A stretch of 64,000 nt of DNA from an uncultured Ruminococcus sp. (GTDB lineage: Bacteria > Bacillota > Clostridia > Oscillospirales > Ruminococcaceae), in contig UQYQ01000001.1 of NCBI GenBank assembly GCA_900545345.1, positions 34,426 to 98,425 of the forward strand. The letters are read 5' to 3'. How positions within the stretch are numbered: the stretch's first letter is position 1; every line of letters starts with the position of its first letter. The notes below the pieces were generated by a model. That model saw only the letters and a list, made by a program, of their open reading frames with translations. It was not told where the DNA came from and made no database searches. The translations under genes were made by a program, and so were the position numbers. This document shows positions 20,131 through 60,337 of the stretch, in pieces.

Positions 20131-20200
20131 AAACTAAACCTTCCTTGACTTTAAATACTTTAAAGTATATAATGTACTTGTAATTTAACATAAAATTTGT

Positions 20201-21786: not shown

Positions 21787-21878
21787 TTAGTCATATCCTC
21801 CGCCTTTATGGTTCGAGGATATCTTAATTTTATAATAACAATATGTCAGCTTAATTCAATGGAAGGATGCGATTTGTG

Positions 21879-23168
21879 ATGAAAATAAAAAAGTTTATAT
21901 GCTTATTTACAACAGGCATTATATTTGTAAGTTTATTTTTAAGTGTTCCAACAGTATCATCAACAGTACGTCGCGAAGAAGAACCTAAAATAAAAATCGG
22001 TAATTTTTCATACACATTTAAAGAAAATGTACAATATGGCTCAGTTAAAATTCCGTATTCTGCGACAGTTGTTGAATTTCCCGATATTCAAAAAGTTGAA
22101 TTACCGTCAAAGGTTACTTACAACGGAAATGAATATACAGTAACTGATATAAGGATATACGGCGGATATTATGTTGTCAAAAACAATTCATATATTTCTA
22201 AATGTAAGTATCCGAATATTGAAGAGATTGTATTACCTGATACAATATATAACATAACTGACTTAGGTTATTTTTCAAATCTTAAAAAAATTAATATACC
22301 GAAAAACACAGTGCTGCGCAGAAGTAAAAAATATTTTACTGAAAATTATTACTATGATTTTGAATTTACCGGAGGGCTTAGCGGCTGCCCTAATCTAAAA
22401 TTATCTTTAGACCCAGAAAACCCATATTACTGCTATAAAAACGATATGCTTTTGTCAAAGGACGGAAAGACACTATTTATATCTTTTAATTCTCAAAAAA
22501 ACATCGAAATTCCTGATGGTGTAGAAACATTACTCTACAGGGGAGGATACGGATTTGAATCAGTAGAAAATGTTAAGTTTCCTAATACACTTAAATACAT
22601 TGGTGACTATGTCTTCTCCGATTCAAATCTAACAAAAGTCACACTCCCAAACAGTGTTAAACAAATAAAAGACAGTGCGTTTTCAAATTCCGGCCTTAAA
22701 ACAATTAAATTCGGAAAGAATTTAACTCGTCTTGACATATCAGCATTCAGCAAATGCAAAAATCTAAAGGATGTAACAATCCCTAAAAAACTCAAAACGA
22801 TTGGTTATTATGCATTTGAAAATTGCAAAAACTTAAAAAGTGTAAAAATTCTTTCAAAAAACATTGTTATCCAAGGAGAAGCCTTTGCAGGTTGCCGTAA
22901 ATTAAAAATAGTTAAAATAAACGGTGCTGAAAAAATAAATGAAGAAGCATTTCGGGGATGTAAAAAGCTTTCTAAGGTAATAATTAACAACAAAAGAAAG
23001 GCTCCTAAAATCATTAACACAGCCTTTAGAAACACCAAAAAAGGCATAAAATTTTATGTAAAGAATAAGAAAGTAGCCAAGAGCTTAAAGAAACAGCTAA
23101 AAGGCAGCGGTGTGAGAAACGCAAAAATTTTGATAGGCAAAAAAGTTGTGTATAAGAATGTGAAGTAA
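21879..23168 (+). CDS. Secreted leucine-rich-repeat (BspA-type) surface protein with conserved K-rich C-terminal tail; paralog group A
   Basis: Signal peptide; repeated (I/V)xIPxxVxxIGxxAFxxCxxLxxV LRR units; C-terminus KFYVKNKKVAKSLKKQLKGSGVRNAKILIGKKVVYKNVK shared with 24480, 45780, 47273 and 48271 genes; N-terminal half closely paralogous to 48271 gene. Confidence 0.7.
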   Translation: MKIKKFICLFTTGIIFVSLFLSVPTVSSTVRREEEPKIKIGNFSYTFKENVQYGSVKIPYSATVVEFPDIQKVELPSKVTYNGNEYTVTDIRIYGGYYVVKNNSYISKCKYPNIEEIVLPDTIYNITDLGYFSNLKKINIPKNTVLRRSKKYFTENYYYDFEFTGGLSGCPNLKLSLDPENPYYCYKNDMLLSKDGKTLFISFNSQKNIEIPDGVETLLYRGGYGFESVENVKFPNTLKYIGDYVFSDSNLTKVTLPNSVKQIKDSAFSNSGLKTIKFGKNLTRLDISAFSKCKNLKDVTIPKKLKTIGYYAFENCKNLKSVKILSKNIVIQGEAFAGCRKLKIVKINGAEKINEEAFRGCKKLSKVIINNKRKAPKIINTAFRNTKKGIKFYVKNKKVAKSLKKQLKGSGVRNAKILIGKKVVYKNVK

Positions 23169-23268
23169 TTTTAAGCGGAACTAAATTGTTCCGCTTTTTT
23201 ATTTTAATTTTTTTTAAAATTAATGAGACTTTTTGCGTTTTGAAACGCTTAATAAATAGAAGGGAGGG
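23168..23268 (+). repeat. Copy A of ~95-bp intergenic repeat (terminator hairpin GCGGAAC-TAAATT-GTTCCGC + T-run + conserved AATTAGTGAGACTTTTTG..GAAACGCTTAATAAACAG)
   Basis: Near-identical copies at 43427-43516, 46950-47045, 48107-48210. Confidence 0.8.
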
Positions 23269-23429
23269 ATAAAGTCTAACATATTCTATATAATGTAATA
23301 TATGCACAAATATAAACATCTTTATTTGTGTGTGTATACAAATGTTTTTTATTTCCTTTACTTTACATTTAGTAAATGTTATAATATGGATGGAAATACT
23401 CCGTAATAACCATGAAAGGAAATATTAAC

Positions 23430-24458
23430 ATGAAACTCAGAAAAATTCTATGCTTATCACTTGCAGCAGCAGTCACATTCACTTCAGCAATTAATTTGAC
23501 AGTATCGGCTGAAATCGGCGGGGAGAATGCTAACGAAAATCAAAGCTTTGGCTGTATCATTCTGGACAAAATGAGGAATGAAAAATCTGATAACGACAAT
23601 TCGGGGATTTCTCCGCTTTGGACGGGTGATACACACGATGAAATCATCATGGGAGGCGATAGTAATTACATACCGGCCGCATATTCGGATTTAGTTTATA
23701 AAATTTGCAAATGGTGTGATGATGAAACCAAAATACCTTTTGCAACATGCTTGCACGGAAACAGAAACTATGTAGCAACATTAAAATTTTTATGGACTTA
23801 TGCACAAAAGATAAGTGTTAACAGCGGTGAAGCTTATCATGTACAATCTTCAAATGCTAAATCTCAATGTTTAGCAATGTTTGATAAACAAAAGTTTGAT
23901 AATTTAAATTCTTACGACAAACAAGATTATGTTCATTTGGTAAAACTAGCTGACACTACAGAATATGTTATTAATACATATGGAAAATTTAAAAACGGTG
24001 AGGGTAGAAAATATCTTATAGTCGGACTTATAATGCATTTTTTAGGCGATGTTACAGCACATAGGACTATAGTACCAAAATTTATGATTGATAGGGCAAC
24101 TGATTCTAATTATACAAATAGTATTAACAGATTCAATAAAAAAGATTTCTCAAATGCTGAATGGAACAAACTTATAACAGAATATAATAACGGTTCATTG
24201 GATTTTTCGTTAATACAAAATTTATTAATTAAAAGAAGCGGTGAAACAGACGAAGATTTAAATAAACGAAAAGTAAGTATTAGAAAAAGATATGAAGACA
24301 ATCCAAGTGTAGTTCCAAATAGAATATTACAATCTGAAACAATGGTTGATTATTTTTTCCACTATTTTAACAATGGATTTGATGACTCAATTTTCGACTC
24401 ATCATATTCGAACATAAACTTAATCTACTTAAATAACAAATACAAACGTCAAATATAG
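23430..24458 (+). CDS. Secreted protein with phospholipase-C/P1-nuclease-like zinc-binding domain (putative)
   Basis: Signal peptide MKLRKILCLSLAAAVTFTSA; motifs LWTGDTHDE (Trp/His N-terminal ligand region), LHGNRNYVATLKFLW, and HFLGDVTAHR resembling the H(Y/F)(L/I)GD..QP.H zinc motif of zinc-dependent PLC/P1 nuclease; paralogous to C-terminal half of 43621 gene. Confidence 0.55.
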   Translation: MKLRKILCLSLAAAVTFTSAINLTVSAEIGGENANENQSFGCIILDKMRNEKSDNDNSGISPLWTGDTHDEIIMGGDSNYIPAAYSDLVYKICKWCDDETKIPFATCLHGNRNYVATLKFLWTYAQKISVNSGEAYHVQSSNAKSQCLAMFDKQKFDNLNSYDKQDYVHLVKLADTTEYVINTYGKFKNGEGRKYLIVGLIMHFLGDVTAHRTIVPKFMIDRATDSNYTNSINRFNKKDFSNAEWNKLITEYNNGSLDFSLIQNLLIKRSGETDEDLNKRKVSIRKRYEDNPSVVPNRILQSETMVDYFFHYFNNGFDDSIFDSSYSNINLIYLNNKYKRQI

Positions 24459-24479
24459 AATCGAAAGGAATGTAACGAT

Positions 24480-25451
24480 ATGAAAAAGACTTTAAAAACT
24501 GCAATTGCTCTTATTTTATTTTTAATCTTGTGTACCAGTTCAGTAAATGCATTTCAATTTAACGGAAATATGGAGGTTCCAGGGTTTATAGTTGATGGTA
24601 TTATATACAAGCACTCCCCTGGTTCCACAGATGTAGAAATGGAAGGTACATTTTTACAGGGAAACCTTAAAACATTGTATATACCTGAAACCGTAAAAAA
24701 TGAAGGAAAACTTTATACAGTTACAAATATTTTTTTTGATGATTATATAGACGGTTTTCCTGAATGTGTTTATACTATCGATAATATAAATGTTTCTAAA
24801 AATTTGAAAGAATTTGTTACAGACACTGTATATAGATCTAAACCCGGAGCTTGGCAAAATCTCAAAACAATAAATATACCTAAAGATGCTCAGCTTAAGT
24901 CAATAGGATATTTTAAAAACTGTCCAAAGCTAAAAAGTGTTTATATCCCTGCGTCTGTTAAATCAATTGGCTTTAAAAACTGCCCTAATCTTAAAATGAC
25001 AGTTTCAAAAGACAATCCTAAATACAAAATGAGAAACACTCGGTATTTATGCTCAAAGAACGGTAAAACGGCATATGAGTATTTCGGAAAGCAAAAAAGT
25101 GTTACTATTCCTAAAGGTATAACTGCACTGTACGGTACATACTCAGATAATAAATATATAAAAAAAGTAACTATACCAAGCTCGGTAAAAACTATAAAGG
25201 GTTATACATTTAGTAACTGCAAAGGTTTATCCAAAGTAATAATTAAAAACGAAAAGAAAGCACCTAAGATTTCTAAAAAAACTCGTTATAATATCACTGA
25301 TAAAGTCTTTGAAAACACCAAAAAAGGCATAAAATTTTATGTAAAGAATAAGAAAGTAGCTAAGAGCCTGAAGAAACAATTAAAAGGCAGCGGAGTAAAA
25401 AAAGCTAAGATTTTAGTCGGCAAAAAAGTTGTGTATAAGAATGTGAAGTAA
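24480..25451 (+). CDS. Secreted LRR surface protein with conserved K-rich tail; paralog group B
   Basis: 323 aa; signal peptide; LRR units; same C-terminal tail. Confidence 0.7.
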   Translation: MKKTLKTAIALILFLILCTSSVNAFQFNGNMEVPGFIVDGIIYKHSPGSTDVEMEGTFLQGNLKTLYIPETVKNEGKLYTVTNIFFDDYIDGFPECVYTIDNINVSKNLKEFVTDTVYRSKPGAWQNLKTINIPKDAQLKSIGYFKNCPKLKSVYIPASVKSIGFKNCPNLKMTVSKDNPKYKMRNTRYLCSKNGKTAYEYFGKQKSVTIPKGITALYGTYSDNKYIKKVTIPSSVKTIKGYTFSNCKGLSKVIIKNEKKAPKISKKTRYNITDKVFENTKKGIKFYVKNKKVAKSLKKQLKGSGVKKAKILVGKKVVYKNVK

Positions 25452-25588
25452 ATTTTAAAGAGTCCTGATAACAAAAAAATGTTATCAGGACCTTTTAATT
25501 TCGATATAAAATGTTTGACAAAGCACGGTTTAATGGTGTACAATAAAAGGGTAATAAAATACAAAAATTCAAATTGGAGGAAGAATAA

Positions 25589-27957: not shown

Positions 27958-29799
27958 TTATTTAACTTTAACTTTTCTGAGCTTCTTATTCCACTTGCTG
28001 TATACTCTGATAGTCTTACCATTCTTATCCTTGTATGTAGCATAAGCTCTAACTCTTACGAAGTATGTCTTCTTGCTCTTAATCTTCTTATTCTTGATTG
28101 TGAGCTTTGTCTTCTTAACATCCTTCTTGAAGATAATCTTGCTCTTCTTGAACTTCTTGTTTGTTGAAACCTGAACCTGATAGCCCTTAGCTTTCTTAAC
28201 TTTCTTCCAAGTTACGTTGATCTTCTTCTTAGCCTTGCTCTTAACCTTTAGAGTATTAAGCTTAGCCTGTTTCATAGCTTTCTTAGCAGCTGCCTTTTCC
28301 TTAGCAACAACCTTAGGGTTTCTTGTAGTCTTTACTACAGGTTGCTTTGTTGGAGTTGTAACAGAAGGGTTTGGTCTTCCGCTATTTGTAGGATTAGAAG
28401 GTCTTACAATCTTCTTGAAGTTTGAAACTGTAAATGTAATAACCATCTCTTCGCCTACTTTGTAATCAACATCAAGCGGATCAATAGGTGCACCAACTGA
28501 ACTTGTATCACCCCAAGTATTATAAATCTCAAGTCTTAGATTATCATTGTCATCTTCAAGATCACCGAATAATGCTTTGCTAGCATCTTGAACAATTTCT
28601 TTTCCTGCTACTGTTATAGAATCAAGCTTTGCATCGAAACTAAAATCATTCTTACAATCTAAGAAATCTATAACCAAACACATTATACCGCTTACATCAG
28701 TCTCTGTACCATCTCCGTTTGCAGCAGGTATAACTAATTTGTATTGACCGTCTTTATCAATATCTACTGAAATTGTGCGTTCAATGCAAGGATAGTAGTC
28801 ACCGTCTGTGAAATATATTGCAGCAGTAACTTTATCTTTACTAGGTGTTGGGCCAGGAGTTGGATCTTTTTTAATCTCAGCACCCTTTAAAGTGAATTTA
28901 ACTGATATTGATGTAATTGTTGACACATCTGCAGGAAGTGCAATACTTCCGGCTGCGTTCCATGCATTATAAACATCAACTTTAATATCCTCTGGAGCAT
29001 CCCAACCATATACTGAAATATTCTTTAGAGCATTTGGTACATCAACTGATGTGCCGTTAACAGTTACCTCATCTACAGTGAGAGTTGCATTTTCATTAAT
29101 TAATGTACCCTTAACTGCACCAGTTGATCTAAGTGTAACAGCTGACTGCTTGTTTAAGCTAATACCTGTAGCTGAAACCTCATATTGACCGTCTTTATTT
29201 ACGCTTATTATATCTCCTAATTGAGTGCCATTGTTATCAATTAATCTGACTTTTGCAGCGTCTGAAGGGTCTGGGTCATCACCGCCGCCGATGTCACCAA
29301 GCTCATCTGTAGGATCTTCTAAATAGCATCCGATAAGCTTAGCACTTGTTATACCGTAATCGTCTTCTCCGTCATTCTTGAAGACTACAGCCATAAACTG
29401 TGTTACATCGCTGTCATTACCTTCAAATGTTGCAACATACTTACCGTTTTTAGGTGTTGAGATTGCAGGGTTTTTATCTCCTGGGTCCCATGCCTGTACA
29501 CTACTACCATTATTAAGGCAAATGTAAGCTGTAGTGTTTGCTGTTGCACCTGTAACTTCAAATGCAACATAGAATTTTTTGTTTTGAATCGCTGAGAATT
29601 TTGCGGTTGCACCATTATAGTCTTGAATTAGCTTAAGCTGAGAACCCTCAAGAGTACCTGTCTCGCCACCGCCGTACCAGCCTTTTGTAGGCTTGATAGG
29701 CTCAAGAGCAGCTGAAGCTGTTGTAAATGATGTAATAGCAACTGCAGAGAAAGCCATAATTGCCGCTGTTACACCAGACAGAAGTCTTTTTAACTTCAT
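27958..29799 (-). CDS. Secreted cell-surface protein with lysine-rich FN3-like C-terminal domain
   Basis: 613 aa; signal peptide ...TTASA; PT-rich linker; C-terminal KGYQVQVSTNKKFKKSK...YFVRVRAYATYKD pattern similar to C-terminus of 53330 gene. Confidence 0.6.
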   Translation of the reverse strand: MKLKRLLSGVTAAIMAFSAVAITSFTTASAALEPIKPTKGWYGGGETGTLEGSQLKLIQDYNGATAKFSAIQNKKFYVAFEVTGATANTTAYICLNNGSSVQAWDPGDKNPAISTPKNGKYVATFEGNDSDVTQFMAVVFKNDGEDDYGITSAKLIGCYLEDPTDELGDIGGGDDPDPSDAAKVRLIDNNGTQLGDIISVNKDGQYEVSATGISLNKQSAVTLRSTGAVKGTLINENATLTVDEVTVNGTSVDVPNALKNISVYGWDAPEDIKVDVYNAWNAAGSIALPADVSTITSISVKFTLKGAEIKKDPTPGPTPSKDKVTAAIYFTDGDYYPCIERTISVDIDKDGQYKLVIPAANGDGTETDVSGIMCLVIDFLDCKNDFSFDAKLDSITVAGKEIVQDASKALFGDLEDDNDNLRLEIYNTWGDTSSVGAPIDPLDVDYKVGEEMVITFTVSNFKKIVRPSNPTNSGRPNPSVTTPTKQPVVKTTRNPKVVAKEKAAAKKAMKQAKLNTLKVKSKAKKKINVTWKKVKKAKGYQVQVSTNKKFKKSKIIFKKDVKKTKLTIKNKKIKSKKTYFVRVRAYATYKDKNGKTIRVYSKWNKKLRKVKVK

Positions 29800-39481: not shown

Positions 39482-39510
39482 GCAGAATCAGAAATTTAAC
39501 ACAAATAATT

Positions 39511-39750
39511 AAAAGCGATGATTAGAAGAGTAATAAGCTGTTTCAACTCAGAGAGAGTGTATATGGTGAAAACACTTTTGAAATAACTTATGAAAGACAC
39601 CTATGAGTTCCCGTTTGAATAAAAAGGACGGGCGTTACCTGCGTTAAAGGACACGAGTGGTTCAGATAAAAATTATCCGAACAATTAGGGTGGTATCACG
39701 ATTATTACGGTCGTCCCTTTGGGGCGGCCTTTTATTTTTACAATAAGAAA
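39511..39750 (+). ncRNA. T-box riboswitch leader (His-specific by context) with intrinsic terminator
   Basis: Stem I elements (GCGATGA...AGAAGAGTA, AGAGA), conserved T-box AATTAGGGTGGTATCACG at 39683-39700, terminator GGUCGUCCC-UUU-GGGGCGGCC + UUUUAUUUUU directly before hisS; candidate CAC specifier in gaaagaCACctatgag. Confidence 0.8.
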
Positions 39751-51029: not shown

Positions 51030-52982
51030 TTATTTAGTAAAATAGAAAAATGGAAGTTCGCTGTTTTTGTCTTCTTTAATTTCTTCTAACCACAGCTTTG
51101 AAACTGCATCGCTCGGCATTCTTAAATCTCCTCTCGGTGAAAGCGTCACAGAACCGATTTTTGCCCCGTCAGGCAAACAAGAACGCTTGAACTGCTGAGA
51201 GAAAAACCTTGAATAAAATTTCTCAAGCCATTTTAAAATCACCATGTTATTATACTTTCCGTCAAATGCATACTCTGCAAGTCTTAAAACCTTTCTAGGC
51301 GGAAATCCCCACCTGACAATATAATATAAAAAGAAATCGTGCAGTTCATAAGGACCTACAATATCCTCGGTTTTCTGCGTGATATTTTCTTTGTTCTCAT
51401 CTGTCGGAAGAAGCTCAGGAGAAACCGGTGTATCAAAAACATCATAAAGAACATCTTTTACGGCACTGTCACCGCAGGTATCTGCATAGTATTTTATAAT
51501 ATGCCTTACCAGTGTTTTCGGTACAGAAGCATTAACTCCGTACATAGACATATGGTCTCCGTTATATGTTGCCCATCCAAGAGCAAGTTCTGACAAATCA
51601 CCCGTTCCGACAACAAGGCCGCCGACTTGGTTTGCAATATTCATCAAAACCTTTGTGCGTTCTCTTGCCTGACCGTTTTCGTACACAACATTATGGTTAT
51701 CTTCATCATGTTCGATATCTTCAAAGTGCTGAAGCACAGACTTTGTTATATCAACTTCTCTGAATGTTACACCAAGCGCATTGCAAAGAAGCTCAGCATT
51801 AGAACGAGTGCGCTTTGTTGTACCGAAGCAAGGCATGGTAACAGCAACTATATCCGCTCTGTTTCTATTAAGCAAATCCATAGCCTTAACACACACCAAA
51901 AGGGCAAGTGCACTGTCAAGCCCGCCTGAAATCCCGATAACAAGTGACTTTGAGTTTGTATGTGAAATTCTCTTTTTTAGCCCCTGTGCCTGCATTCTCA
52001 AAATAAGCTCACAGCGGCTGTTTTTCTCATCTTCATCATAAGGAATAAACGGCGTCCGAGCATAAAATCTCGTAAGCTCGGTATCTTGAAGCTTCATTGA
52101 AAACTCAATGATTTTATAGTCTGTGTCATTGCTCTTTGGAAAAGTTGAAAGCTTTCTTCTCTCACCGGCAAGCTTTGCTAAATCAATTTCCGAAACAGTC
52201 ATTTCATTTTCAAAAAGCCGACTTTCTTTGAGTATTGCACCGTTTTCCGCAATAATATTATGTCCTGAAAAAACCATGTCCTGAGTTGATTCTCCGTCCC
52301 CTGCCGAACAGTAAATATAGCCTGAAACAAGTCTTGCCGACTGATTTTTAACCAGCTCTCTTCGATAACTGTCCTTACCAATAACCTCATCCGAAGCAGA
52401 TAAATTTCCTATTAATAACGCACCTGCTAAGGCATGCTGATTTGAAACCGGACAAGGTGTCCATAAATCCTCGCAAATTTCAACTGCATATACAAATTCC
52501 TTCATCTCTTTACACTTAAACAAAAGCTTCGAACCGAAAGGATAGATTTTTCCGAACAATTCTATCTCTTCGTTTTCTTTCGGTGCAGGTGCGAAATGAC
52601 GAGCCTCATAAAACTCATTATAATTCGGCAGCGATGTTTTGGGAACAACCCCTAAAATATCACCGTTATATATAATGACACCACAGTTATAAAGTTTATT
52701 GTTCTTAATTATCGGACATCCGACAGTACAGATTATTTCTTTTCCTTCAGTAGACTTAACTACCCTTTCAAGCCCTTCCAAAGCCTTATCTGTAAGAAGG
52801 CTTTGATAAAATAAATCCTGACATGTATATGATGTTATACAAAGTTCGGGAAAAACACAAAGCTTTGTGCCTGATTTATATGCTTTATTTATACCTGAAA
52901 TTATGCTTTCAACATTAAAGTCTACATCTGCGACCTTAATGTTCGGTGTAATTGCCGCTGCTTTTAAAAATCCGTCTTTCAT
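51030..52982 (-). CDS. nadE: Glutamine-dependent NAD+ synthetase (N-terminal CN-hydrolase domain + NAD synthase domain)
   Basis: Start MKDGFLK at 52982 (GGAG SD 7 nt upstream); nitrilase domain with FPELCITSY; PP-loop SGGLDSALAL. Confidence 0.9.
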   Translation of the reverse strand: MKDGFLKAAAITPNIKVADVDFNVESIISGINKAYKSGTKLCVFPELCITSYTCQDLFYQSLLTDKALEGLERVVKSTEGKEIICTVGCPIIKNNKLYNCGVIIYNGDILGVVPKTSLPNYNEFYEARHFAPAPKENEEIELFGKIYPFGSKLLFKCKEMKEFVYAVEICEDLWTPCPVSNQHALAGALLIGNLSASDEVIGKDSYRRELVKNQSARLVSGYIYCSAGDGESTQDMVFSGHNIIAENGAILKESRLFENEMTVSEIDLAKLAGERRKLSTFPKSNDTDYKIIEFSMKLQDTELTRFYARTPFIPYDEDEKNSRCELILRMQAQGLKKRISHTNSKSLVIGISGGLDSALALLVCVKAMDLLNRNRADIVAVTMPCFGTTKRTRSNAELLCNALGVTFREVDITKSVLQHFEDIEHDEDNHNVVYENGQARERTKVLMNIANQVGGLVVGTGDLSELALGWATYNGDHMSMYGVNASVPKTLVRHIIKYYADTCGDSAVKDVLYDVFDTPVSPELLPTDENKENITQKTEDIVGPYELHDFFLYYIVRWGFPPRKVLRLAEYAFDGKYNNMVILKWLEKFYSRFFSQQFKRSCLPDGAKIGSVTLSPRGDLRMPSDAVSKLWLEEIKEDKNSELPFFYFTK

Positions 52983-53329
52983 AATAATACTCCGTTTCTT
53001 TGGAAAATAAATAATTCCGTCACACACAAATCACTAGGAATTCACAGTATTTATTTTATTTCCTATTGTAATTTAATTATATATAATTTTTTATTTATTT
53101 GCAAGTAACCAACTGACTGAAAAGTTTTATAAATCTTTGGAAACACAAGAATTAACAGAATATAAAAAAAGAATTTATATATTCATTATGATACAATTTT
53201 AACATTCTTTTTACTTGTTTTTTGGAAAACATTACAATTGACATAATTATTCTTTAGTTATATAATTTAAATATAAAATTTAATGTCAATATTTTGTTAT
53301 GTTTGTATAACAAAATAAAGGAGGAAAAT

Positions 53330-54544
53330 ATGAAGAAAGTAATTAGTTTATTAATGTCATTAGTAATGGCAGCAAGCCTTATTGCTACATTACCTGCTTC
53401 TGCTGAATCATATTTTGAAAACGATTCAGTTGCAACAGCTATACCGATTAGCTTAAATCAAACATATCCTATAAACTACGGCGTCAGCCCATCTTACGGT
53501 ACAGACTGTTTTGTGAAAATAACATTGCCTAGCAAAGGTTACATTTCTACTACTGTAAACAAGCCTATTGTTAACCAGAAGTATGAGGATATGAAAATTG
53601 TTATATGCAATTCTCAGGGCATTAAAATAGCTGAGCATTATCAAACTACTGAAGCAGCAGGTGCAATCAAGTTCAGCATTGGATTGAACAAAGGTACATA
53701 TTACATAAATATTATAAACCAATTCTCTTCTTATGAAGAGCCTCAAGATGTTACAACTCTTTTCAGAGTTGACTTCAAGGCTGACAACTATTGCGAAGCT
53801 GAGCCTAATAACGGAGTTACAACAGCTACACCTATGACTCTCGGCAAATCATATTTAGGTTTTATTGAACCTAATGGCGGCAACTACGATGATTACTACA
53901 AATTCGTTATTCCGTCAACAAGAAAAGTCAGATTTTATATCGGCAATTATACAAATGTAGTATCAAACTCCGGAACAAATACTTATTTCCGTTTATTTAA
54001 GTCCAATGACGCATATGAAAGCAGTATGTACTCTTACAGAGGAACAAATGACTACAATTCAAGCATTTATAAATTCAACATGGCAAACAACAAAATGAAA
54101 ATTCTAAGCAGCGGCACAGCTTATGTTGATAAATATTTAACCGCCGGCACATATTACATCAAGGTTACTTCTTTCCTTGACACAAACTCTGCATATTCAA
54201 TAAGTGTTAATAATGCACCTGCAACAACTGTCGGAGTTCAAAAGCCTAAATCAAACAAACCTTCACAGGTTACAGGATTGAAACTTAAAAAGGGCGGAAC
54301 AAAAACAGCTAAAGTTGTATGGAAAAAAGTAAAAGGTGCTAAGGGATACCAGGTTAAATATTCAACAAGCAAAAAGTTCAAAAAATCAAAGACTAAGACA
54401 AAAACCGCAAAGAAAAATAAGATTACTTTAAAGAATCTTAATAAAAAGAAATATTATGTAAAGGTAAGAGCTTATAAAAAAGTAAAAGGCAAAAAGGTTT
54501 ACGGTAAATACAGCAGAACTTTAATGCTTTATAGAATGTGGTAA
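53330..54544 (+). CDS. Secreted protein with two pre-peptidase C-terminal (PPC)-like domains and K-rich FN3-like C-terminus
   Basis: Start MKKVISLL with GGAGG SD; signal peptide ...PASA; DCFVKITLP... and DDYYKFVIP... PPC-like DYYKF patterns; C-terminal KGYQVKYSTSKKFKKSK...YYVKVRAYKK. Confidence 0.55.
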   Translation: MKKVISLLMSLVMAASLIATLPASAESYFENDSVATAIPISLNQTYPINYGVSPSYGTDCFVKITLPSKGYISTTVNKPIVNQKYEDMKIVICNSQGIKIAEHYQTTEAAGAIKFSIGLNKGTYYINIINQFSSYEEPQDVTTLFRVDFKADNYCEAEPNNGVTTATPMTLGKSYLGFIEPNGGNYDDYYKFVIPSTRKVRFYIGNYTNVVSNSGTNTYFRLFKSNDAYESSMYSYRGTNDYNSSIYKFNMANNKMKILSSGTAYVDKYLTAGTYYIKVTSFLDTNSAYSISVNNAPATTVGVQKPKSNKPSQVTGLKLKKGGTKTAKVVWKKVKGAKGYQVKYSTSKKFKKSKTKTKTAKKNKITLKNLNKKKYYVKVRAYKKVKGKKVYGKYSRTLMLYRMW

Positions 54545-54552
54545 TAAATAAA

Positions 54553-54593
54553 AAAATCAAATGCAATCCTGAATTCAGGATTGCATTTTTTTG
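54553..54593 (+). terminator. Terminator after the 53330 gene
   Basis: aaatgcaatcctgaattcaggattgcattttttt perfect palindrome + T-run. Confidence 0.8.
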
Positions 54594-54597
54594 CATA

Positions 54598-54640
54598 ATT
54601 AAAGCCTTGCTTATACAAGCAAGGCTTGTTGTTTTATTTT
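54598..54640 (-). terminator. Hairpin after rluA
   Basis: aagccttgcttatacaagcaaggctt. Confidence 0.5.
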
Positions 54641-55479
54641 ATTAAACTTGTCATATCTTCAGGTAACTCACTGTCAATAGTAATTATTTCTTTTGTTATT
54701 GGGTGACAAAACCTGACCGTCTTGCAATGCAGAGCCTGGCGGCTTATATCAGAACAGTCACCGCCGTACATTTCGTCACCTGCAAGCGGAAAACCGATAT
54801 ATGAAAAATGGACACGAATCTGATGTGTTCTTCCGGTTTCAAGATTAATTTTCACAAGCGTGTATTTTTCATCATATGAACATTTGACAGCTTTATAATG
54901 TGTTACTGCATTTTGCCCGGATTTTGAAACTTCCCGCTTTATGATAGAACCGTCTGTTCGTCCGATAGGCGCGTCAATAGTTCCGTCATTATCAAGCTTT
55001 CCGCAAACTACAGCATAATACGTTTTTTCTAAGCTCTGCTGAAGTGACTTAGCAGAAAAAGCATTTTTTGCAGCAACACAAACACCTGATGTATCCCTGT
55101 CAAGTCTATTTATCGGACGGAAAGTGAGACCGCTGCAAATATAGGAAAAATAGTTTCCGAGAGTGTCGCCCTGATGCTTTATCGACGGATGCACCGGCAT
55201 ATTATACGGCTTGTCAAAAACAATCAAGTCATCACATTCATACAAAACAGGAACACTTAGATGCCGACTAGCTTCAAGCATTTTTTCATCTTCAAGGGCA
55301 ATTGTTATGCTCTCACCCTTAAAAACCTTATCAACTGTTCTTATATGAACTCCGTTTTTAGTTATACCGTCTTTTGTTCTCTTTAGCTTTTTTATCAGTC
55401 TTTTAGAAACATTGTTTTTCGACAAAAGACTCATAACCGTTTGATTGCATTCAGCAACAAAACATATTTTACGCATCAT
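54634..55479 (-). CDS. RluA-family 23S rRNA pseudouridine synthase (RluD/RluC-like)
   Basis: 281 aa; N-terminal S4-like region, catalytic HRLDRDTSGV motif (INRLDRDTSGVCV). Confidence 0.85.
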   Translation of the reverse strand: MMRKICFVAECNQTVMSLLSKNNVSKRLIKKLKRTKDGITKNGVHIRTVDKVFKGESITIALEDEKMLEASRHLSVPVLYECDDLIVFDKPYNMPVHPSIKHQGDTLGNYFSYICSGLTFRPINRLDRDTSGVCVAAKNAFSAKSLQQSLEKTYYAVVCGKLDNDGTIDAPIGRTDGSIIKREVSKSGQNAVTHYKAVKCSYDEKYTLVKINLETGRTHQIRVHFSYIGFPLAGDEMYGGDCSDISRQALHCKTVRFCHPITKEIITIDSELPEDMTSLIK

Positions 55480-56182
55480 TTTCTCCGTTTATATCGGAAA
55501 ATTCAGCTTTATCTTTATAATAAAAACCGTTGATTTCATCTTCGCTGAGCGGCTCTGCCTCATCATCATAAACATAAGGAAAACGCCCTAAAATCTCAAA
55601 CGCCGTTGACCTCTGCCACATTGATGCCGAAATCATTACCTCAAAACCTTCACCGAAATCACAAACAAGATCGTTTGGGTTATATTTAGGAATACCGAAG
55701 CACGAAAGCATATTCATAATAATTCCTCCGTGAGTAACCACGGCACAGTTAGTTAAACCCTCCTGCATCATTGACGCTGCTATTTTTTCCATAGCTGCAA
55801 CGCATCTTTCAACGACAGTTCTCATACTTTCACCATTAGGCGGAGGATTGTCAAGTCCGCCCTTTAAAAACTTTTTATACTCAGGTTTGCACATGATATC
55901 CTCGGCCTTTTTATTTTCAAAGTCTCCGAAATCCATTTCAATAAGCTCCGGAATTTCTACCGTTATTGCTTCAGGATAAAGAATAGCTGCTGTTTCCCTG
56001 CATCGCTTCAAAGGGCTTATAAAAACTTTCTGAACACTGCCGTAATCATTTTCCTCCATCTTTGTATAAAGCTCATTTACACCCTCTGAGCAAAGAGGCA
56101 TATCTGTTATTCCTATATATTTTCCGTCAAGATTGCCTTGTGTTATTCCATGACGAATAATTTTAAGTCTATAACCTGTCAT
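55469..56182 (-). CDS. Histidine phosphatase superfamily protein (phosphoglycerate mutase/CobC-like)
   Basis: 237 aa; RHG motif (IIRHGITQGN), downstream His (VVTHGGII); 11-bp overlap with rluA start. Confidence 0.8.
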   Translation of the reverse strand: MTGYRLKIIRHGITQGNLDGKYIGITDMPLCSEGVNELYTKMEENDYGSVQKVFISPLKRCRETAAILYPEAITVEIPELIEMDFGDFENKKAEDIMCKPEYKKFLKGGLDNPPPNGESMRTVVERCVAAMEKIAASMMQEGLTNCAVVTHGGIIMNMLSCFGIPKYNPNDLVCDFGEGFEVMISASMWQRSTAFEILGRFPYVYDDEAEPLSEDEINGFYYKDKAEFSDINGENDA

Positions 56183-56357
56183 AATTTTCTCCTTTCAGAA
56201 ATTTTTTATAATTTATCTAATAATTAAACATTACATTAAGTAAAAATAGTACTATAATATACATAATAGTACAATTTACTACAAAAAAATTAATTTGTGT
56301 TACCGTAAGATTAGCGTGATACTCTTCACGCAGAAGCATAATATGGAGGAAATAACT

Positions 56358-56993
56358 ATGAACAAAGATTTTCCCAGAATCCTTACGCTTCTTCGAACTG
56401 AAAACGGGCTTAGTCAGAAAAAGGTCGCAAATGACCTTAAAATCTCACAAGGTCTGTTATCCCACTATGAAAACGGAAAGCGTGAATGTAATCTGGATTT
56501 ATTAGTAAAAATCGCAAACTATTTTGATGTTTCTTGTGATTATCTTTTGGGCAGAACAACCATGCCAAAACCAAACAAAAGAAGTCTTAAATCTAAAGAA
56601 AAACAAAAAAACATAACAAACACTATAAGTCATCTTGAAGATAAAATTAACAACGCTTTAAAAATTTACTATTCATTAATTGAAAGTTATGAATCACATA
56701 AGCTCATCAAAGATTCTGAAAAAGTTCTTTCACTTTCAATTTATTCAATGTTCAGGTGTGCATTCTTAGCAAACCCGAAAAACGATAAAAACTATTTCGG
56801 GATTAATAAGGATTATATTGCTCCTGCATTTGCTATACTGTCATCTTCACTTGAACAAGAATTGGCAAACACAAAAATCTCAGCTTCAAAAACTTCTTTG
56901 ATGAAGTTATATAATGAATTTCCGCTTGAATATAAATCTCTTGACGAGGTAATTCATTTCAGTGAAGATTTTATAAATAAAATTATAAACTAA
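56358..56993 (+). CDS. XRE-family helix-turn-helix transcriptional regulator
   Basis: Start MNKDFPRIL (GGAGG 8 nt upstream); HTH LSQKKVANDLKISQGLLSHYENGKR; divergent from the phosphatase and rluA genes, upstream of apbE-rnf. Confidence 0.7.
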   Translation: MNKDFPRILTLLRTENGLSQKKVANDLKISQGLLSHYENGKRECNLDLLVKIANYFDVSCDYLLGRTTMPKPNKRSLKSKEKQKNITNTISHLEDKINNALKIYYSLIESYESHKLIKDSEKVLSLSIYSMFRCAFLANPKNDKNYFGINKDYIAPAFAILSSSLEQELANTKISASKTSLMKLYNEFPLEYKSLDEVIHFSEDFINKIIN

Positions 56994-57061
56994 AACTTCA
57001 TTGTTTTATTGTAACACTTTTATACATAAAAAACAATACAGAAAAATAAGGCGGAATAACA

Positions 57062-58081
57062 TTGAAAAAAAGAATATCCTTAATTATATTCATTTTTATT
57101 TTATTGGCTGTAATATTTTTAACTCTATATAAAATAGAATTAAAAAAAGATACTTATAACACTAAAACCTTTTTATCTATGGACACATCAGTGAGCGTCA
57201 CTCTTTGGGGAGAGCAATTTAACGATAAGCTTTATAACAAAATAAGAAATCATATAAGTAATCTTAGCAGCACTTTTGACTCATACAATGAAAACGGGGA
57301 ATTATTTAAACTCAATAAAACAAGACATATGTCCTGTTCCCCTGAAATGATTGATATTATTTCTAAAACTTTAAGTTATCAAAAAAAGTATAAGAATGTC
57401 GATATATCTTCGGGAAAACTTATTTCCCTTTGGGATTTTCAATCAGAAAACCCTCGGCTTCCGTCTGAAGAAAAAATTTTTGATGCACTCAAATCAATAA
57501 ACTATGAAAATATAAATATAAACGATAACATAATCAATATTGATTCAGATACAAAAATAGACTTGGGTTCATCTGCAAAAGGATATACTTGCGATATAAT
57601 AAAAAACGACTTAATAAACAGCAATGCTGATTGTGCAATAGTGTCGTTTGGCTCGTCTGCTTTGCTGTATGGCCAAAAGCCTGACAACGATTATTTTTCT
57701 GTTGCATTGAAAGTTCCGAAAAAAAAATCAAAGGCTTCTATAGGAAAATTAAAAACAAAAAGCTGTGTTATTTCAAGCTCAGGAGGGTATGAGCGTTATT
57801 TTGAAATAGATAATAAAACATACTCACATATTCTTGACTTAAATACAGGCTATCCGGCTGAAACTGATTTATTATCGGTAACAGTCATATCGCAAAACGG
57901 ACTTTTAACAGACTTTTTATCCACTGAAATATATATAGGCGGAACAAAAAACATAGATAGCTATCTTAACAATAAAAACTATTCGGTTATTGCTGTCTCC
58001 GATAAAAATAAAATCTATATTTCCGACCGTATAAAAAATGATTTCAAAATCACAGACAATGAATACTCATTTGCAAAATAA
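57062..58081 (+). CDS. apbE: FAD:protein FMN transferase (ApbE family)
   Basis: 339 aa; N-terminal TM/signal; IDLGSSAKGYTCD matches the ApbE DLGxxAKGY motif; immediately precedes rnf genes whose D/G subunits need flavinylation. Confidence 0.75.
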   Translation: MKKRISLIIFIFILLAVIFLTLYKIELKKDTYNTKTFLSMDTSVSVTLWGEQFNDKLYNKIRNHISNLSSTFDSYNENGELFKLNKTRHMSCSPEMIDIISKTLSYQKKYKNVDISSGKLISLWDFQSENPRLPSEEKIFDALKSINYENININDNIINIDSDTKIDLGSSAKGYTCDIIKNDLINSNADCAIVSFGSSALLYGQKPDNDYFSVALKVPKKKSKASIGKLKTKSCVISSSGGYERYFEIDNKTYSHILDLNTGYPAETDLLSVTVISQNGLLTDFLSTEIYIGGTKNIDSYLNNKNYSVIAVSDKNKIYISDRIKNDFKITDNEYSFAK

Positions 58082-58095
58082 TTAAATATGAAAGG

Positions 58096-59391
58096 GTGAT
58101 ATTCTTGTCACTGAACTGCATAAAAATTTCGCACAGAAAAAACACAGAAAAATGTGAAACAATTAACTTGCCTATCCCAAAAAACGTTTCAATCCCGATG
58201 TCACAGCATATGGGTACACCTTGTGAACCTATTGTTACTGTCGGGGAAGAAGTTAAAGTCGGTCAGAAGATAGGCGACAGTGATGCTTTTATGTCTGCTC
58301 CTGTTCATTCAAGCGTTTCGGGAAAAGTTTCAGATATTAATGACTTTCTTCTTGCAAACGGCAGGGTTTGTAAAAGTATTCTTATTGAATGTGACGGCAA
58401 ACAAATTATGAGTGATGATATTACTCCTCCCGTAATTGCAGACAAATCTTCATTGATAAAAGCTGTAAGAGAAAGCGGATGCTGCGGACTCGGCGGAGCA
58501 GGGTTTCCGACACATATTAAACTTAATTTCGATGAAAACAAGACTCCTATCGACAGCCTTGTTATAAATGCAGCCGAATGCGAACCACACATAACAAGCG
58601 ACTACCGTGAAATGATAGAAAACCCTCAAGATGTACTGAGCGGAATTAAAACTATTCAGAAAATACTGAACATTGAAAAAACATATATTTGCATTGAAGA
58701 TAATAAACCTGATGCAATTAAGATTCTTACAGATTTAACTTCAAATGATAATTCTGTAAAAATCAAAAAACTTCCTGCATTCTATCCTCAAGGTGCTGAA
58801 AAAGTCATTGCATATAATGCAACAGGCAGAATAATCAAAGAAGGTGAGCTTCCTTCAAATCAAGGCATAATTGTTATGAATGTTTCAACTGCTTCATTCT
58901 TAAACAGATACTTTAAAACAGGAATTCCCCTCATACAACGCCGTATCACTATAGACGGCGATGCCGTTAAGTCACCCTGCAATGTTATTGCCCCTGTCGG
59001 AACTTCAGTTGCAGAGCTTTTAGAGTTTGCAGAATATGAAAAAGACAAAGTAAAAAAAGTTCTGACAGGCGGACTTATGATGGGAACATGTCTGTATGAC
59101 ATAAACACCCCTGTAACAAAAACCAATAATGCCATAATAGCGTTAAAAAAACAAACTGAAAAAGTTCAGACAAACTGTATCCGCTGCGGAAGATGTGTAA
59201 ACGCCTGCCCTATGGGGCTTATGCCGACAGAGCTTGAAAAAGCATATAATGCTAAAAACTATGATTTGCTTAAATCGCTCAAAGTCAATCTTTGTATGAA
59301 TTGCGGAAGCTGTTCTTATGTTTGCCCTGCTAAACGCAACTTAGCAGAAACAAATCAGCTGGCAAAAACACTTATTTCAAAGAACAAATAG
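58096..59391 (+). CDS. rnfC: Rnf electron transport complex subunit C
   Basis: 431 aa; two 4Fe-4S motifs CIRCGRCVNACP and CMNCGSCSYVCP; RnfC N-terminal IPMSQHMGTP; start GTG 58096 or TTG 58105. Confidence 0.9.
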   Translation: MIFLSLNCIKISHRKNTEKCETINLPIPKNVSIPMSQHMGTPCEPIVTVGEEVKVGQKIGDSDAFMSAPVHSSVSGKVSDINDFLLANGRVCKSILIECDGKQIMSDDITPPVIADKSSLIKAVRESGCCGLGGAGFPTHIKLNFDENKTPIDSLVINAAECEPHITSDYREMIENPQDVLSGIKTIQKILNIEKTYICIEDNKPDAIKILTDLTSNDNSVKIKKLPAFYPQGAEKVIAYNATGRIIKEGELPSNQGIIVMNVSTASFLNRYFKTGIPLIQRRITIDGDAVKSPCNVIAPVGTSVAELLEFAEYEKDKVKKVLTGGLMMGTCLYDINTPVTKTNNAIIALKKQTEKVQTNCIRCGRCVNACPMGLMPTELEKAYNAKNYDLLKSLKVNLCMNCGSCSYVCPAKRNLAETNQLAKTLISKNK

Positions 59392-59410
59392 AAAGAGAGG
59401 AATAATAACA

Positions 59411-60337
59411 ATGCAAAAGCTGACTGTTTCTCCATCGCCTCACACACGTTCAGATATGACAACACAAAAAATAATGTTGAATGTTATTATAGCTCTTTGT
59501 CCTGCTATAATATCCTCCGGATTTATTTTCGGGCTTCGTGCTGTATTTTTAATATTAATTTGTGTTTCAACTGCTCTTGTGTGGGAAACTCTCTTTAACA
59601 TTATAACAAAAAAACCAAATACAATATCAGACCTTTCAGCAGCGGTAACAGGAATTCTGTTAGCTTTTAACCTTCCTCCTTCACTGCCGTTTTGGATGGC
59701 GGCAATCGGAACATTTATAGCAATAGTTGTTGTAAAATGCCTGTTTGGAGGCCTTGGACAAAATTTTGCCAACCCTGCTATTGTCGGAAGAATAGTTTTA
59801 ATGCTATCATTCACAAACGCAATGACTAACTGGACTCTTCCTCTGTCACTTCAAACCTCTGATGTTACAACAGGTGCTACTCCGCTTGTCAGCAGCAACG
59901 CTGAATATTTAGATTTGTTTTTAGGAAAAACCGGTGGCTGCTTAGGTGAAACCTGTGCGTTAGCACTTATTATCGGCGGATTGTATCTGGTCATAAGACG
60001 TATTATTTCACCGATTACACCTTTGTTTTTCCTGCTTACTGTTGAGATTTTTTCTATTGCCGCAGGATTCGACCCGCTATATCAAATCCTATCGGGCGGA
60101 ATACTTCTCGGTGCAATATTTATGGCAACAGACTATGTTACAACTCCGATTACTATGTGGGGCAAAGTAATTTTCGGCATAGGCTGCGGAACAATCACTT
60201 GCATCATCAGATTTTACGCTTCAATGGCAGAAGGTGTTTCTTTTTCAATTTTAATAATGAACATTCTGACCCCATATATTGATATGATTACAAAAGCTAA
60301 GCCTGTCGGTATTTCAAAGACAAAGGAGGATATTTAA
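59411..60337 (+). CDS. rnfD: Rnf complex subunit D
   Basis: 308 aa polytopic NqrB/RnfD family; C-terminal TGAT flavinylation-like motif. Confidence 0.9.
   Translation: MQKLTVSPSPHTRSDMTTQKIMLNVIIALCPAIISSGFIFGLRAVFLILICVSTALVWETLFNIITKKPNTISDLSAAVTGILLAFNLPPSLPFWMAAIGTFIAIVVVKCLFGGLGQNFANPAIVGRIVLMLSFTNAMTNWTLPLSLQTSDVTTGATPLVSSNAEYLDLFLGKTGGCLGETCALALIIGGLYLVIRRIISPITPLFFLLTVEIFSIAAGFDPLYQILSGGILLGAIFMATDYVTTPITMWGKVIFGIGCGTITCIIRFYASMAEGVSFSILIMNILTPYIDMITKAKPVGISKTKEDI

Follow-up and report, generated by a model that had tools for sequence, protein, structure and literature searches.

Extracytoplasmic function (ECF) sigma factors of Bacillus subtilis use promoters with CGT in the -10 element and AAC in the -35 element, the latter adjoined by a T-tract of stimulatory effect (tGAAACnTTTt) (PMC5758882). 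The promoter of Tt-RpoE1 from Thermoanaerobacter tengcongensis, tGTTAC-N16-CGTC, has been defined by in vitro transcription and mutagenesis, and the DXXR motif in region 2.4 of this sigma factor reads the G at position -12 (PMC3397946). Here we analyse an intergenic repeat that occurs in four copies in a 64,000-nucleotide stretch (the window) of contig UQYQ01000001.1, which derives from an uncultured Ruminococcus sp. (assembly GCA_900545345.1, positions 34,426 to 98,425). Each copy contains a hairpin with a T-run, followed by a conserved block. As judged by comparison of the sequences, it is highly probable that the hairpin is the terminator of the upstream gene and that it lies beside a promoter for an ECF sigma factor, which heads units encoding surface proteins.

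The block resembles the promoters recognised by B. subtilis sigma-W, sigma-M, sigma-X and sigma-V in being bipartite, with a -35 element ending in AC, a T-tract directly 3' of it and a -10 element starting with CG (PMC5758882). The genetic arrangement is also alike, in that one motif stands before the sigma factor's own operon as well as before regulon genes, and in that a gene for a membrane protein follows the sigma gene. It differs in having GAGAC instead of AAC at -35 and CGCTTA instead of CGT at -10, in a regulon that appears to comprise secreted leucine-rich repeat (LRR) and subtilase proteins rather than envelope-stress genes, and in a membrane partner without a recognisable anti-sigma domain. 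With Tt-RpoE1 the present system shares a hexamer ending in AC, a distance of exactly 16 nt and a CGxx element (here tGAGAC-N16-CGCT), a DXXR motif in region 2.4 (here DYIR) and an origin in the class Clostridia (PMC3397946), whereas the bases of both promoter elements differ, the anti-sigma factor of Tt-RpoE1 is TolB-like, and the promoter described here is a predicted one. A more distant parallel is offered by the Sigma-I/RsgI systems of cellulolytic clostridia, which likewise combine an alternative sigma factor, a membrane partner and a motif shared by a family of secreted or surface genes; their sigma family and motifs are others, and their targets are carbohydrate-degrading (cellulosome) enzymes and not BspA-type LRR proteins (PMC6056542). 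A literature search returned nothing relevant on a GAGAC-type ECF promoter or on ECF control of BspA-type LRR proteins in Firmicutes. In Listeria, the internalin (LRR) gene families share PrfA or sigma-B promoters. These resemble the present case as clustered paralogous genes for secreted LRR proteins under a short shared promoter element, and differ from it in the type of LRR (here BspA/LRR_5), the class of regulator and the motif.

Re-reading of the window located the four copies, hereafter A to D, at 23168-23268, 43427-43516, 46950-47045 and 48107-48210, as had been stated in the preliminary description. The 20-nt hairpin sequence GCGGAACTAAATTGTTCCGC occurs exactly at positions 23175, 43433, 46957 and 48114, and the pattern TGAGACTTTTTG-N9-ACGCTTA at 23224, 43480, 47010 and 48163, all on the plus strand. 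Allowing up to three mismatches revealed no further match to the hairpin in the window (0.01 expected by chance) and no fifth site for the block pattern (0.03 expected); the 13-mer GTGAGACTTTTTG on its own was not significant at two mismatches (5 found versus 2.8 expected). When the copies were aligned, three invariant islands emerged, namely the hairpin with its T-run, (A/G)TGAGACTTTTTG and ACGCTTA. An A/T-rich stretch with indels lies between the first two, and a 9-nt stretch with substitutions but no indels lies between the last two. The similarity between copies stops sharply just past the block. An inverted repeat in copy A, between 23117-23134 and the block, was not reproduced in copy D and was judged to be due to chance.

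Within the block, a -35 element, (G/A)TGAGAC, is followed directly on its 3' side by a T5 tract, and an invariant gap of 16 nt separates it from the -10 element, CGCTTA. The conservation of the block as previously described is borne out, but not the uniform GTGAGAC, which reads ATGAGAC in copy A. The predicted ECF-type promoters, all on the plus strand, extend over 23223..23251 in copy A (ATGAGAC with T5, a 16-nt spacer and CGCTTA; 178 nt before the likely start codon at 23430), 43479..43507 in copy B (GTGAGAC-T5 ... ACGCTTA; 113 nt before the start of an S8 protease gene at 43621), 47009..47037 in copy C (23 nt before an ATG at 47061) and 48162..48190 in copy D (80 nt before the start of an LRR gene at 48271), so that all four face a gene start 23-178 nt downstream. 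T5 stands right after GAGAC in all close copies, and T4-5 in distant orthologues. The distance between the -35 and -10 elements was free of indels in all 24 variants compared, indels being found just upstream of the block, and the bases of the spacer vary; this combination of fixed spacing, variable spacer bases and indels outside the block fits the variation of a promoter. A simple sigma-70 promoter scan called nothing over the block. In our view the block is most likely the promoter of a dedicated ECF-type alternative sigma factor, and transcription would presumably start at it. A second, imperfect palindrome (gcgttttgaaacgc) had also been described as conserved; it is perfect in only one of 16 distinct variants, its left arm varying while its right arm is fixed, and what was taken for a palindrome is the promoter spacer together with the -10 element.

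Directly past the block, copies A (23257-23266) and D (48196-48205) as well as loci L015 and L017 from related metagenome assemblies carry AGAAGGGAGG, a strong Shine-Dalgarno-like sequence. It stands 65-165 nt from the real start codon and would form the extreme 5' end of an ECF-driven transcript. Its role could be to stabilise the mRNA at its 5' end in the manner of STAB-SD, or to allow translation of a mini open reading frame (ORF), TTG GGG TAA, at 48212-48220.

The hairpin GCGGAAC-TAAATT-GTTCCGC with its T5-6 tail is, by all its sequence features, a Rho-independent terminator of the preceding gene, which is aspS in copy B and a BspA-type LRR gene in copies A, C and D. The earlier assignment as an intrinsic terminator is in agreement with the stable stem, the T5-6 tail and the position after a stop codon. 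Folding energies of the four window copies ranged from -14.3 to -15.3 kcal/mol (z -5.6 to -6.3), and the hairpin begins 6-8 nt past the stop codon of the LRR genes and 25 nt past that of aspS. On the plus strand, the copy A terminator at 23173..23200 ends the LRR gene 21867-23168 (stem AAGCGGAAC/GTTCCGCTT, loop TAAATT, T6; -14.3 kcal/mol, z -5.6), the copy B terminator at 43431..43458 follows the aspS stop codon (43405-43407), the copy C terminator at 46954..46981 ends the LRR gene 45780-46949, and the copy D terminator at 48111..48139 ends the LRR gene 47273-48106. Copies A, B and D were flagged by the terminator scan; the tail of copy C is only T5, followed by CGTG. A GC-rich stem of 9-10 bp, a 6-nt loop, a T5-6 tail and a position 6-25 nt past a stop codon are features shared with Rho-independent terminators in general, from which these hairpins differ in their uniformity: at least nine different genes, the unrelated aspS among them, are followed by one and the same sequence, loop included.

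Although the repeat had been presented as a single element of about 95 bp, its two parts occur separately in related assemblies (loci L019, L021, L013-L020 and L015). A metagenome scan with the block pattern yielded 13 further loci. A related assembly, L004, is 99% identical to the window over the housekeeping flank and has a differently composed cassette array after aspS, in which hairpin and block are present at all five covered junctions. In L013, L014, L016, L018, L020 and L021, the block and the leader of the S8 gene stand behind a different terminator (GGATACAGTG...CGCTGTATCC), and the similarity to the window begins at 43454/43455, just past the hairpin. At its 3' end, too, the S8-LRR operon that the block heads in L021 has a different terminator. 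In L015 the array opens with a block that comes after an unrelated gene and lacks the GCGGAAC hairpin, and in L019 the block is found without any hairpin. Since the block stands behind other terminators or none, it belongs to the downstream gene and the hairpin to the upstream gene; each copy is the junction of two transcription units with two independent signals, a terminator and a promoter. The block heads unrelated genes, namely those of an ECF sigma factor, an S8 protease, LRR proteins and a 348-aa protein as well as a small gene of 83 aa, confirming that it is not the 5' untranslated region of one duplicated gene. At least nine predicted promoters of this kind are present in one metagenome assembly. 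When GTDB representative genomes were searched with the hairpin, three matches were obtained, all attributable to chance and from unrelated phyla, and the source species is apparently not among these representatives. The 19-base query also matched before the gene of a 493-aa secreted protein in another organism (L011); this block, which may be a coincidence, was set aside.

The link to a sigma factor comes from L019, where an ORF with a textbook sigma region 2 begins 36 nt past the end of the block. This locus shares a 117.7-kb metagenome contig with L017, whose sequence matches positions 46917-60008 of the window at 99% identity. The sigma gene can therefore be assigned to the species of the window, although not to the window itself, in which tblastn detected no ECF sigma gene. 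The 177-aa ORF beside the first LRR gene encodes an inorganic pyrophosphatase. The sigma factor of the window's species (P0011) has 183 aa, and its domain search was made on the orthologue from L023, which scored 78.6 bits on TIGR02937 (sigma70-ECF; cut-off 42.9). It has only the Pfam domains Sigma70_r2 and Sigma70_r4_2 (regions 2 and 4), the composition by which group 4 is defined, and the DXXR motif of region 2.4 is present as DYIR. No named equivalog or subfamily cut-off was reached, the best being that of the SigM subfamily (94 versus 147.95 bits).

A protein search with a 97-aa fragment of the sigma factor gave one match, and orthologues were retrieved with the full-length query; the sigma operons of L023, L028 and L029 were thus reached by protein homology and not by the motif. 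Four species (L024/L019, L023, L028 and L029), with sigma factors 74-85% identical to that of L023, have the block ahead of the sigma operon. In these close species GTGAGACTTT(TT/CG)G-N9-ACGCT(T/A)A ends 36-49 nt before the sigma start codon; when the more distant L035 is included, the distance is 36-67 nt. Only 0.03 block matches at up to three mismatches are expected by chance per 20 kb, and the DNA around the sigma-operon block shows no evident similarity between species as judged by eye. L035 (sigma factor 54% identical), which is much more GC-rich, keeps GTGAGAC-TTTT-N12-CGCTTA with the same spacing. In L033 and L031 (47% and 51%, respectively), (G/A)AGAC and the T-tract are kept and the -10 elements differ. 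A block in this position is what one would expect if the ECF sigma factor acts on its own promoter, as we predict, and it is the main evidence for our reading of the block.

In all close species the sigma gene is paired with, and overlaps, the gene of a 355-aa single-pass membrane protein (1574-2641 in L024). The short N-terminus of this protein is followed by a single membrane-spanning segment and a large external part, as is usual for anti-sigma factors, and from its position and topology we infer that it is the anti-sigma factor. Only 16 homologues were found among 5.8 billion proteins, all in one narrow clade, and a Foldseek search against the PDB returned nothing with an E-value below 0.9. 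The protein may carry a novel extracytoplasmic sensor domain.

Several observations weigh against an ECF promoter joined to a plain terminator. Both promoter elements depart from the textbook ECF consensus, with GAC for AAC at -35 and CGC for CGT at -10. Extended -10 promoters of the sigma-A type are present between block and gene in copies A (23357-23385; TGTTATAAT, ending at 23385) and B (43553-43581; TGGTATTAT, ending at 43581), and both recur in related loci; as they lie nearer the gene, the block is not the sole plausible promoter, and the units downstream of copies A and B probably have dual promoters. The 355-aa partner exposes only about 27 residues to the cytoplasm and matches no Pfam or NCBIfam family, and its AlphaFold model (predicted local distance difference test score, pLDDT, 48) gave no fold match. 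The hairpin loop TAAATT (23182-23187, 43440-43445, 46964-46969 and 48121-48126) is the same in all nine copies of the window and L004, although termination alone does not require a fixed loop; it stays fixed while adjoining synonymous sites have diverged by up to 57%, and the sole variant seen is AAATTT in L015 (GCGGAACAAATTTGTTCCGC). Finally, most metagenome copies were found by an exact-motif query, so that the invariance is partly built in. Two sets of copies are independent of this query, nine that are hairpin-anchored (window and L004) and six that are sigma-anchored.

The nine hairpin-anchored copies, in which hairpin, -35 and -10 elements are invariant, also bear on whether the conservation merely reflects recent duplication. 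In the coding region for the LRR tail, codon positions 1 and 2 are 78-99% identical between paralogues, and position 3 is 43-92% identical in most pairs, reaching 100% only for window D compared with the L004 gene that ends at 20194. Diverged third positions beside invariant hairpin, -35 and -10 elements indicate purifying selection rather than mere youth of the duplicates.

What else might account for a conserved block before these genes? It might be an operator or activator site through which a conventional regulator co-controls the sigma operon and the surface genes at sigma-A promoters; in copies of the C type and of the sigma type, ACGCTTATATAAT would then supply a TATAAT -10 element, with the regulator bound at GTGAGAC replacing the -35 element. 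Several copies indeed read CGCTTATATAAT, which contains a perfect TATAAT preceded at 16-18 nt by a poor hexamer, as for an activator-dependent promoter, and a perfect 6+2+6 palindrome, GCGTTT-TG-AAACGC, is present in copy A and in the sigma promoter of the window's species. Yet the invariant part is ACGCTTA and not TATAAT, copies A, B and D having TAATAAAT or TAATTAAC at this position, and the palindrome, perfect in 1 of the 16 variants with changes confined to its left arm, is lost in L035. The block is not consistently accompanied by a regulator gene, and xxxxAC, a T-tract, N16 and CGxx right before an ECF sigma operon form the standard signature of ECF autoregulation (PMC5758882, PMC3397946). 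We consider the activator site quite unlikely. That the repeat is intergenic and contains a stable hairpin could instead suggest a small RNA gene, a cis-acting RNA leader or a mobile element of the miniature inverted-repeat transposable element (MITE) type. This is extremely unlikely, as the two halves occur independently and their boundaries differ between contexts. On neither strand was the predicted fold of the block more stable than that of shuffled sequence (z 0.03 to 1.26), the folds differ between copies, and no Rfam family reached its gathering score; the matches with the best E-values (0.18-0.8) scored far below their gathering scores, and the stronger of them overlap the terminator hairpin. 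Likewise, no inverted-repeat pair is found at the same position in all four copies, which thus lack common terminal inverted repeats. Among the four roles proposed in the preliminary description, a small RNA and a MITE accordingly find no support, and the first, a shared promoter or regulatory module, is the one that the evidence favours.

The remaining proposal was a recombination site for cassette exchange. In its broadest form, the junction, which runs from ~150 nt before the end of the LRR gene through the hairpin to the block, would serve mainly as a recombination substrate by which surface cassettes are shuffled, duplicated or deleted, so that strains vary in their surface, with the hairpin perhaps acting as a recombinase site. 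Cassette content does vary between close assemblies at both loci: compared with window 43621-49527, the array of L004 (12002-21788) has an extra S8 plus LRR unit and other LRR genes after aspS, and compared with window 23168-25451, L015 has extra LRR cassettes at locus A. Counted from the first base of the hairpin, identity between junctions is 0.77-0.98 in the range of about -150 to +88 and about 0.5 beyond, and the loop is fixed in the nine window and L004 copies. However, no recombinase, integrase or transposase domain was found among the window ORFs of at least 150 aa, all but a few of which were scanned, and one breakpoint between the window and L004, at about 44857, falls inside the S8 coding region, away from the element, which points to general homologous recombination rather than to a site-specific system. 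Moreover, the block also stands at single-copy genes (the sigma operon and the L021 operon), and the coding tail is conserved at the protein level, with codon positions 1 and 2 far exceeding position 3. Integron attC sites have the core consensus GTTRRRY, which GTTCCGC does not fit. We therefore regard recombination as improbable as the primary function; as a side effect of the repeats it is compatible with a terminator beside an ECF promoter. The arrays are very likely reshaped by general homologous recombination, acting between the repeated junctions as well as between paralogous coding regions, and the differing cassette numbers suggest that the repeats probably also mediate unequal recombination. 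It is conceivable, though unlikely, that the whole junction, comprising the basic LRR tail, the loop-invariant terminator and the ECF promoter, has been selected as a 'plug-and-play' cassette boundary. If so, any cassette recombined between junctions would be insulated and put under one ECF sigma/anti-sigma switch, giving a gut Clostridia bacterium a strain-variable, jointly switched repertoire of adhesin-like proteins, and the invariant loop would reflect a second function, e.g. protein binding at the DNA or RNA level.

Taking the repeat as a terminator beside an ECF promoter, regulation could proceed as follows. An unknown signal would relieve the anti-sigma factor, and RNA polymerase carrying the sigma factor would bind the block before its own operon, resulting in positive autoregulation, as well as the blocks heading the surface units, i.e. 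S8 subtilase plus LRR, 348-aa protein plus LRR, or LRR alone, each unit being insulated from read-through by the terminator upstream. Tandem duplication or unequal crossing-over of [terminator-promoter-genes] units is the most likely way in which the arrays have grown. Duplication of such units would leave the same hairpin after internal LRR genes and after aspS and a different, ancestral one after the last gene. At both loci the array indeed closes with an LRR gene (ending at 25451 and 49527, respectively) that has an unrelated terminator, and no block after it. The fixed hairpin loop is not accounted for by this model. The duplication history is likewise one that we infer. The repeat is explained by mechanisms that are well known, namely terminators, ECF promoters and the evolution of paralogue arrays through unequal recombination, the surface-protein units between the terminator/promoter junctions having been duplicated.

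The analysis assigns a concrete candidate regulon to an ECF sigma factor that is uncharacterised and comes from an uncultured Clostridia lineage of the human gut. Subtilases and secreted BspA-type LRR proteins, encoded in arrays, appear to be under the control of one pair of sigma factor and membrane protein. The array proteins are candidate factors for interaction with the host or with other microbes, and their number varies between close assemblies. The pattern GTGAGAC-T5-N11-CGCTTA can be used for listing the regulon in metagenome-assembled genomes (MAGs), and the pair of sigma factor and promoter is a candidate orthogonal expression switch.

The units headed by the four copies are all on the plus strand. 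Unit A (23430..25451) encodes a secreted 348-aa protein without a Pfam match, whose ORF opens at 23412 and whose start codon with a ribosome-binding site is at 23430, followed by an LRR_5 protein (24480-25451) and a different terminator at 25462-25491. Unit B (43621..46949) encodes an S8 subtilase (715 aa) and an LRR_5 protein (389 aa). The subtilase gene had been described as phospholipase C (PLC)-like; its product is an S8 subtilase (E 1e-45), and the match to Zn_dep_PLPC remains below the Pfam cut-off (22.5 versus 26.8 bits). Unit C (47061..48106) comprises a 62-aa ORF and the LRR_5 gene 47273-48106, and unit D (48271..49527) consists of the gene of a 418-aa LRR_5 protein, the last of its array, with the unrelated terminator at 49537-49566. 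The 62-aa ORF (47061-47249), which begins 23 nt past the block, resembles at its start the 83-aa gene of L004 (20302-20553), and the start of the latter recurs behind several block copies. Five BspA-type LRR_5 paralogues share a strongly basic C-terminal tail of about 50 aa (...GIKFYVKNKKVAKSLKKQLKGSGVRNAKILIGKKVVYKNVK*), encoded at 23019-23168, 25302-25451, 46800-46949, 47957-48106 and 49378-49527; it matched no Pfam family and may be a wall- or membrane-anchoring or sorting module.

The window as a whole is ordinary chromosome of a low-GC (~35%) Firmicute, with DNA and exact-protein matches in human-gut metagenomes. Its housekeeping genes include mur genes, a penicillin-binding protein (PBP) gene, mraW, the glycogen phosphorylase gene, rnf genes, spoIVB and spo0A. 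Together with a T-box, the last two indicate a spore-forming Firmicute of the Clostridia type. A domain search of the neighbouring ORFs showed that copy B follows aspS, as had been noted, and a T-box leader (39509-39721; 134.9 bits) lies ahead of the operon formed by hisS, a 167-aa ORF and aspS. On the minus strand, 27958-29799 encodes a 613-aa protein without a Pfam match. The 3' ~370 nt of this gene are about 72% identical to DNA beside the block-S8 operon in L013, L018, L020 and L021, and also about 72% identical to the end of a cellulase-family gene in L023, so this part may encode a shared C-terminal module of secreted proteins.

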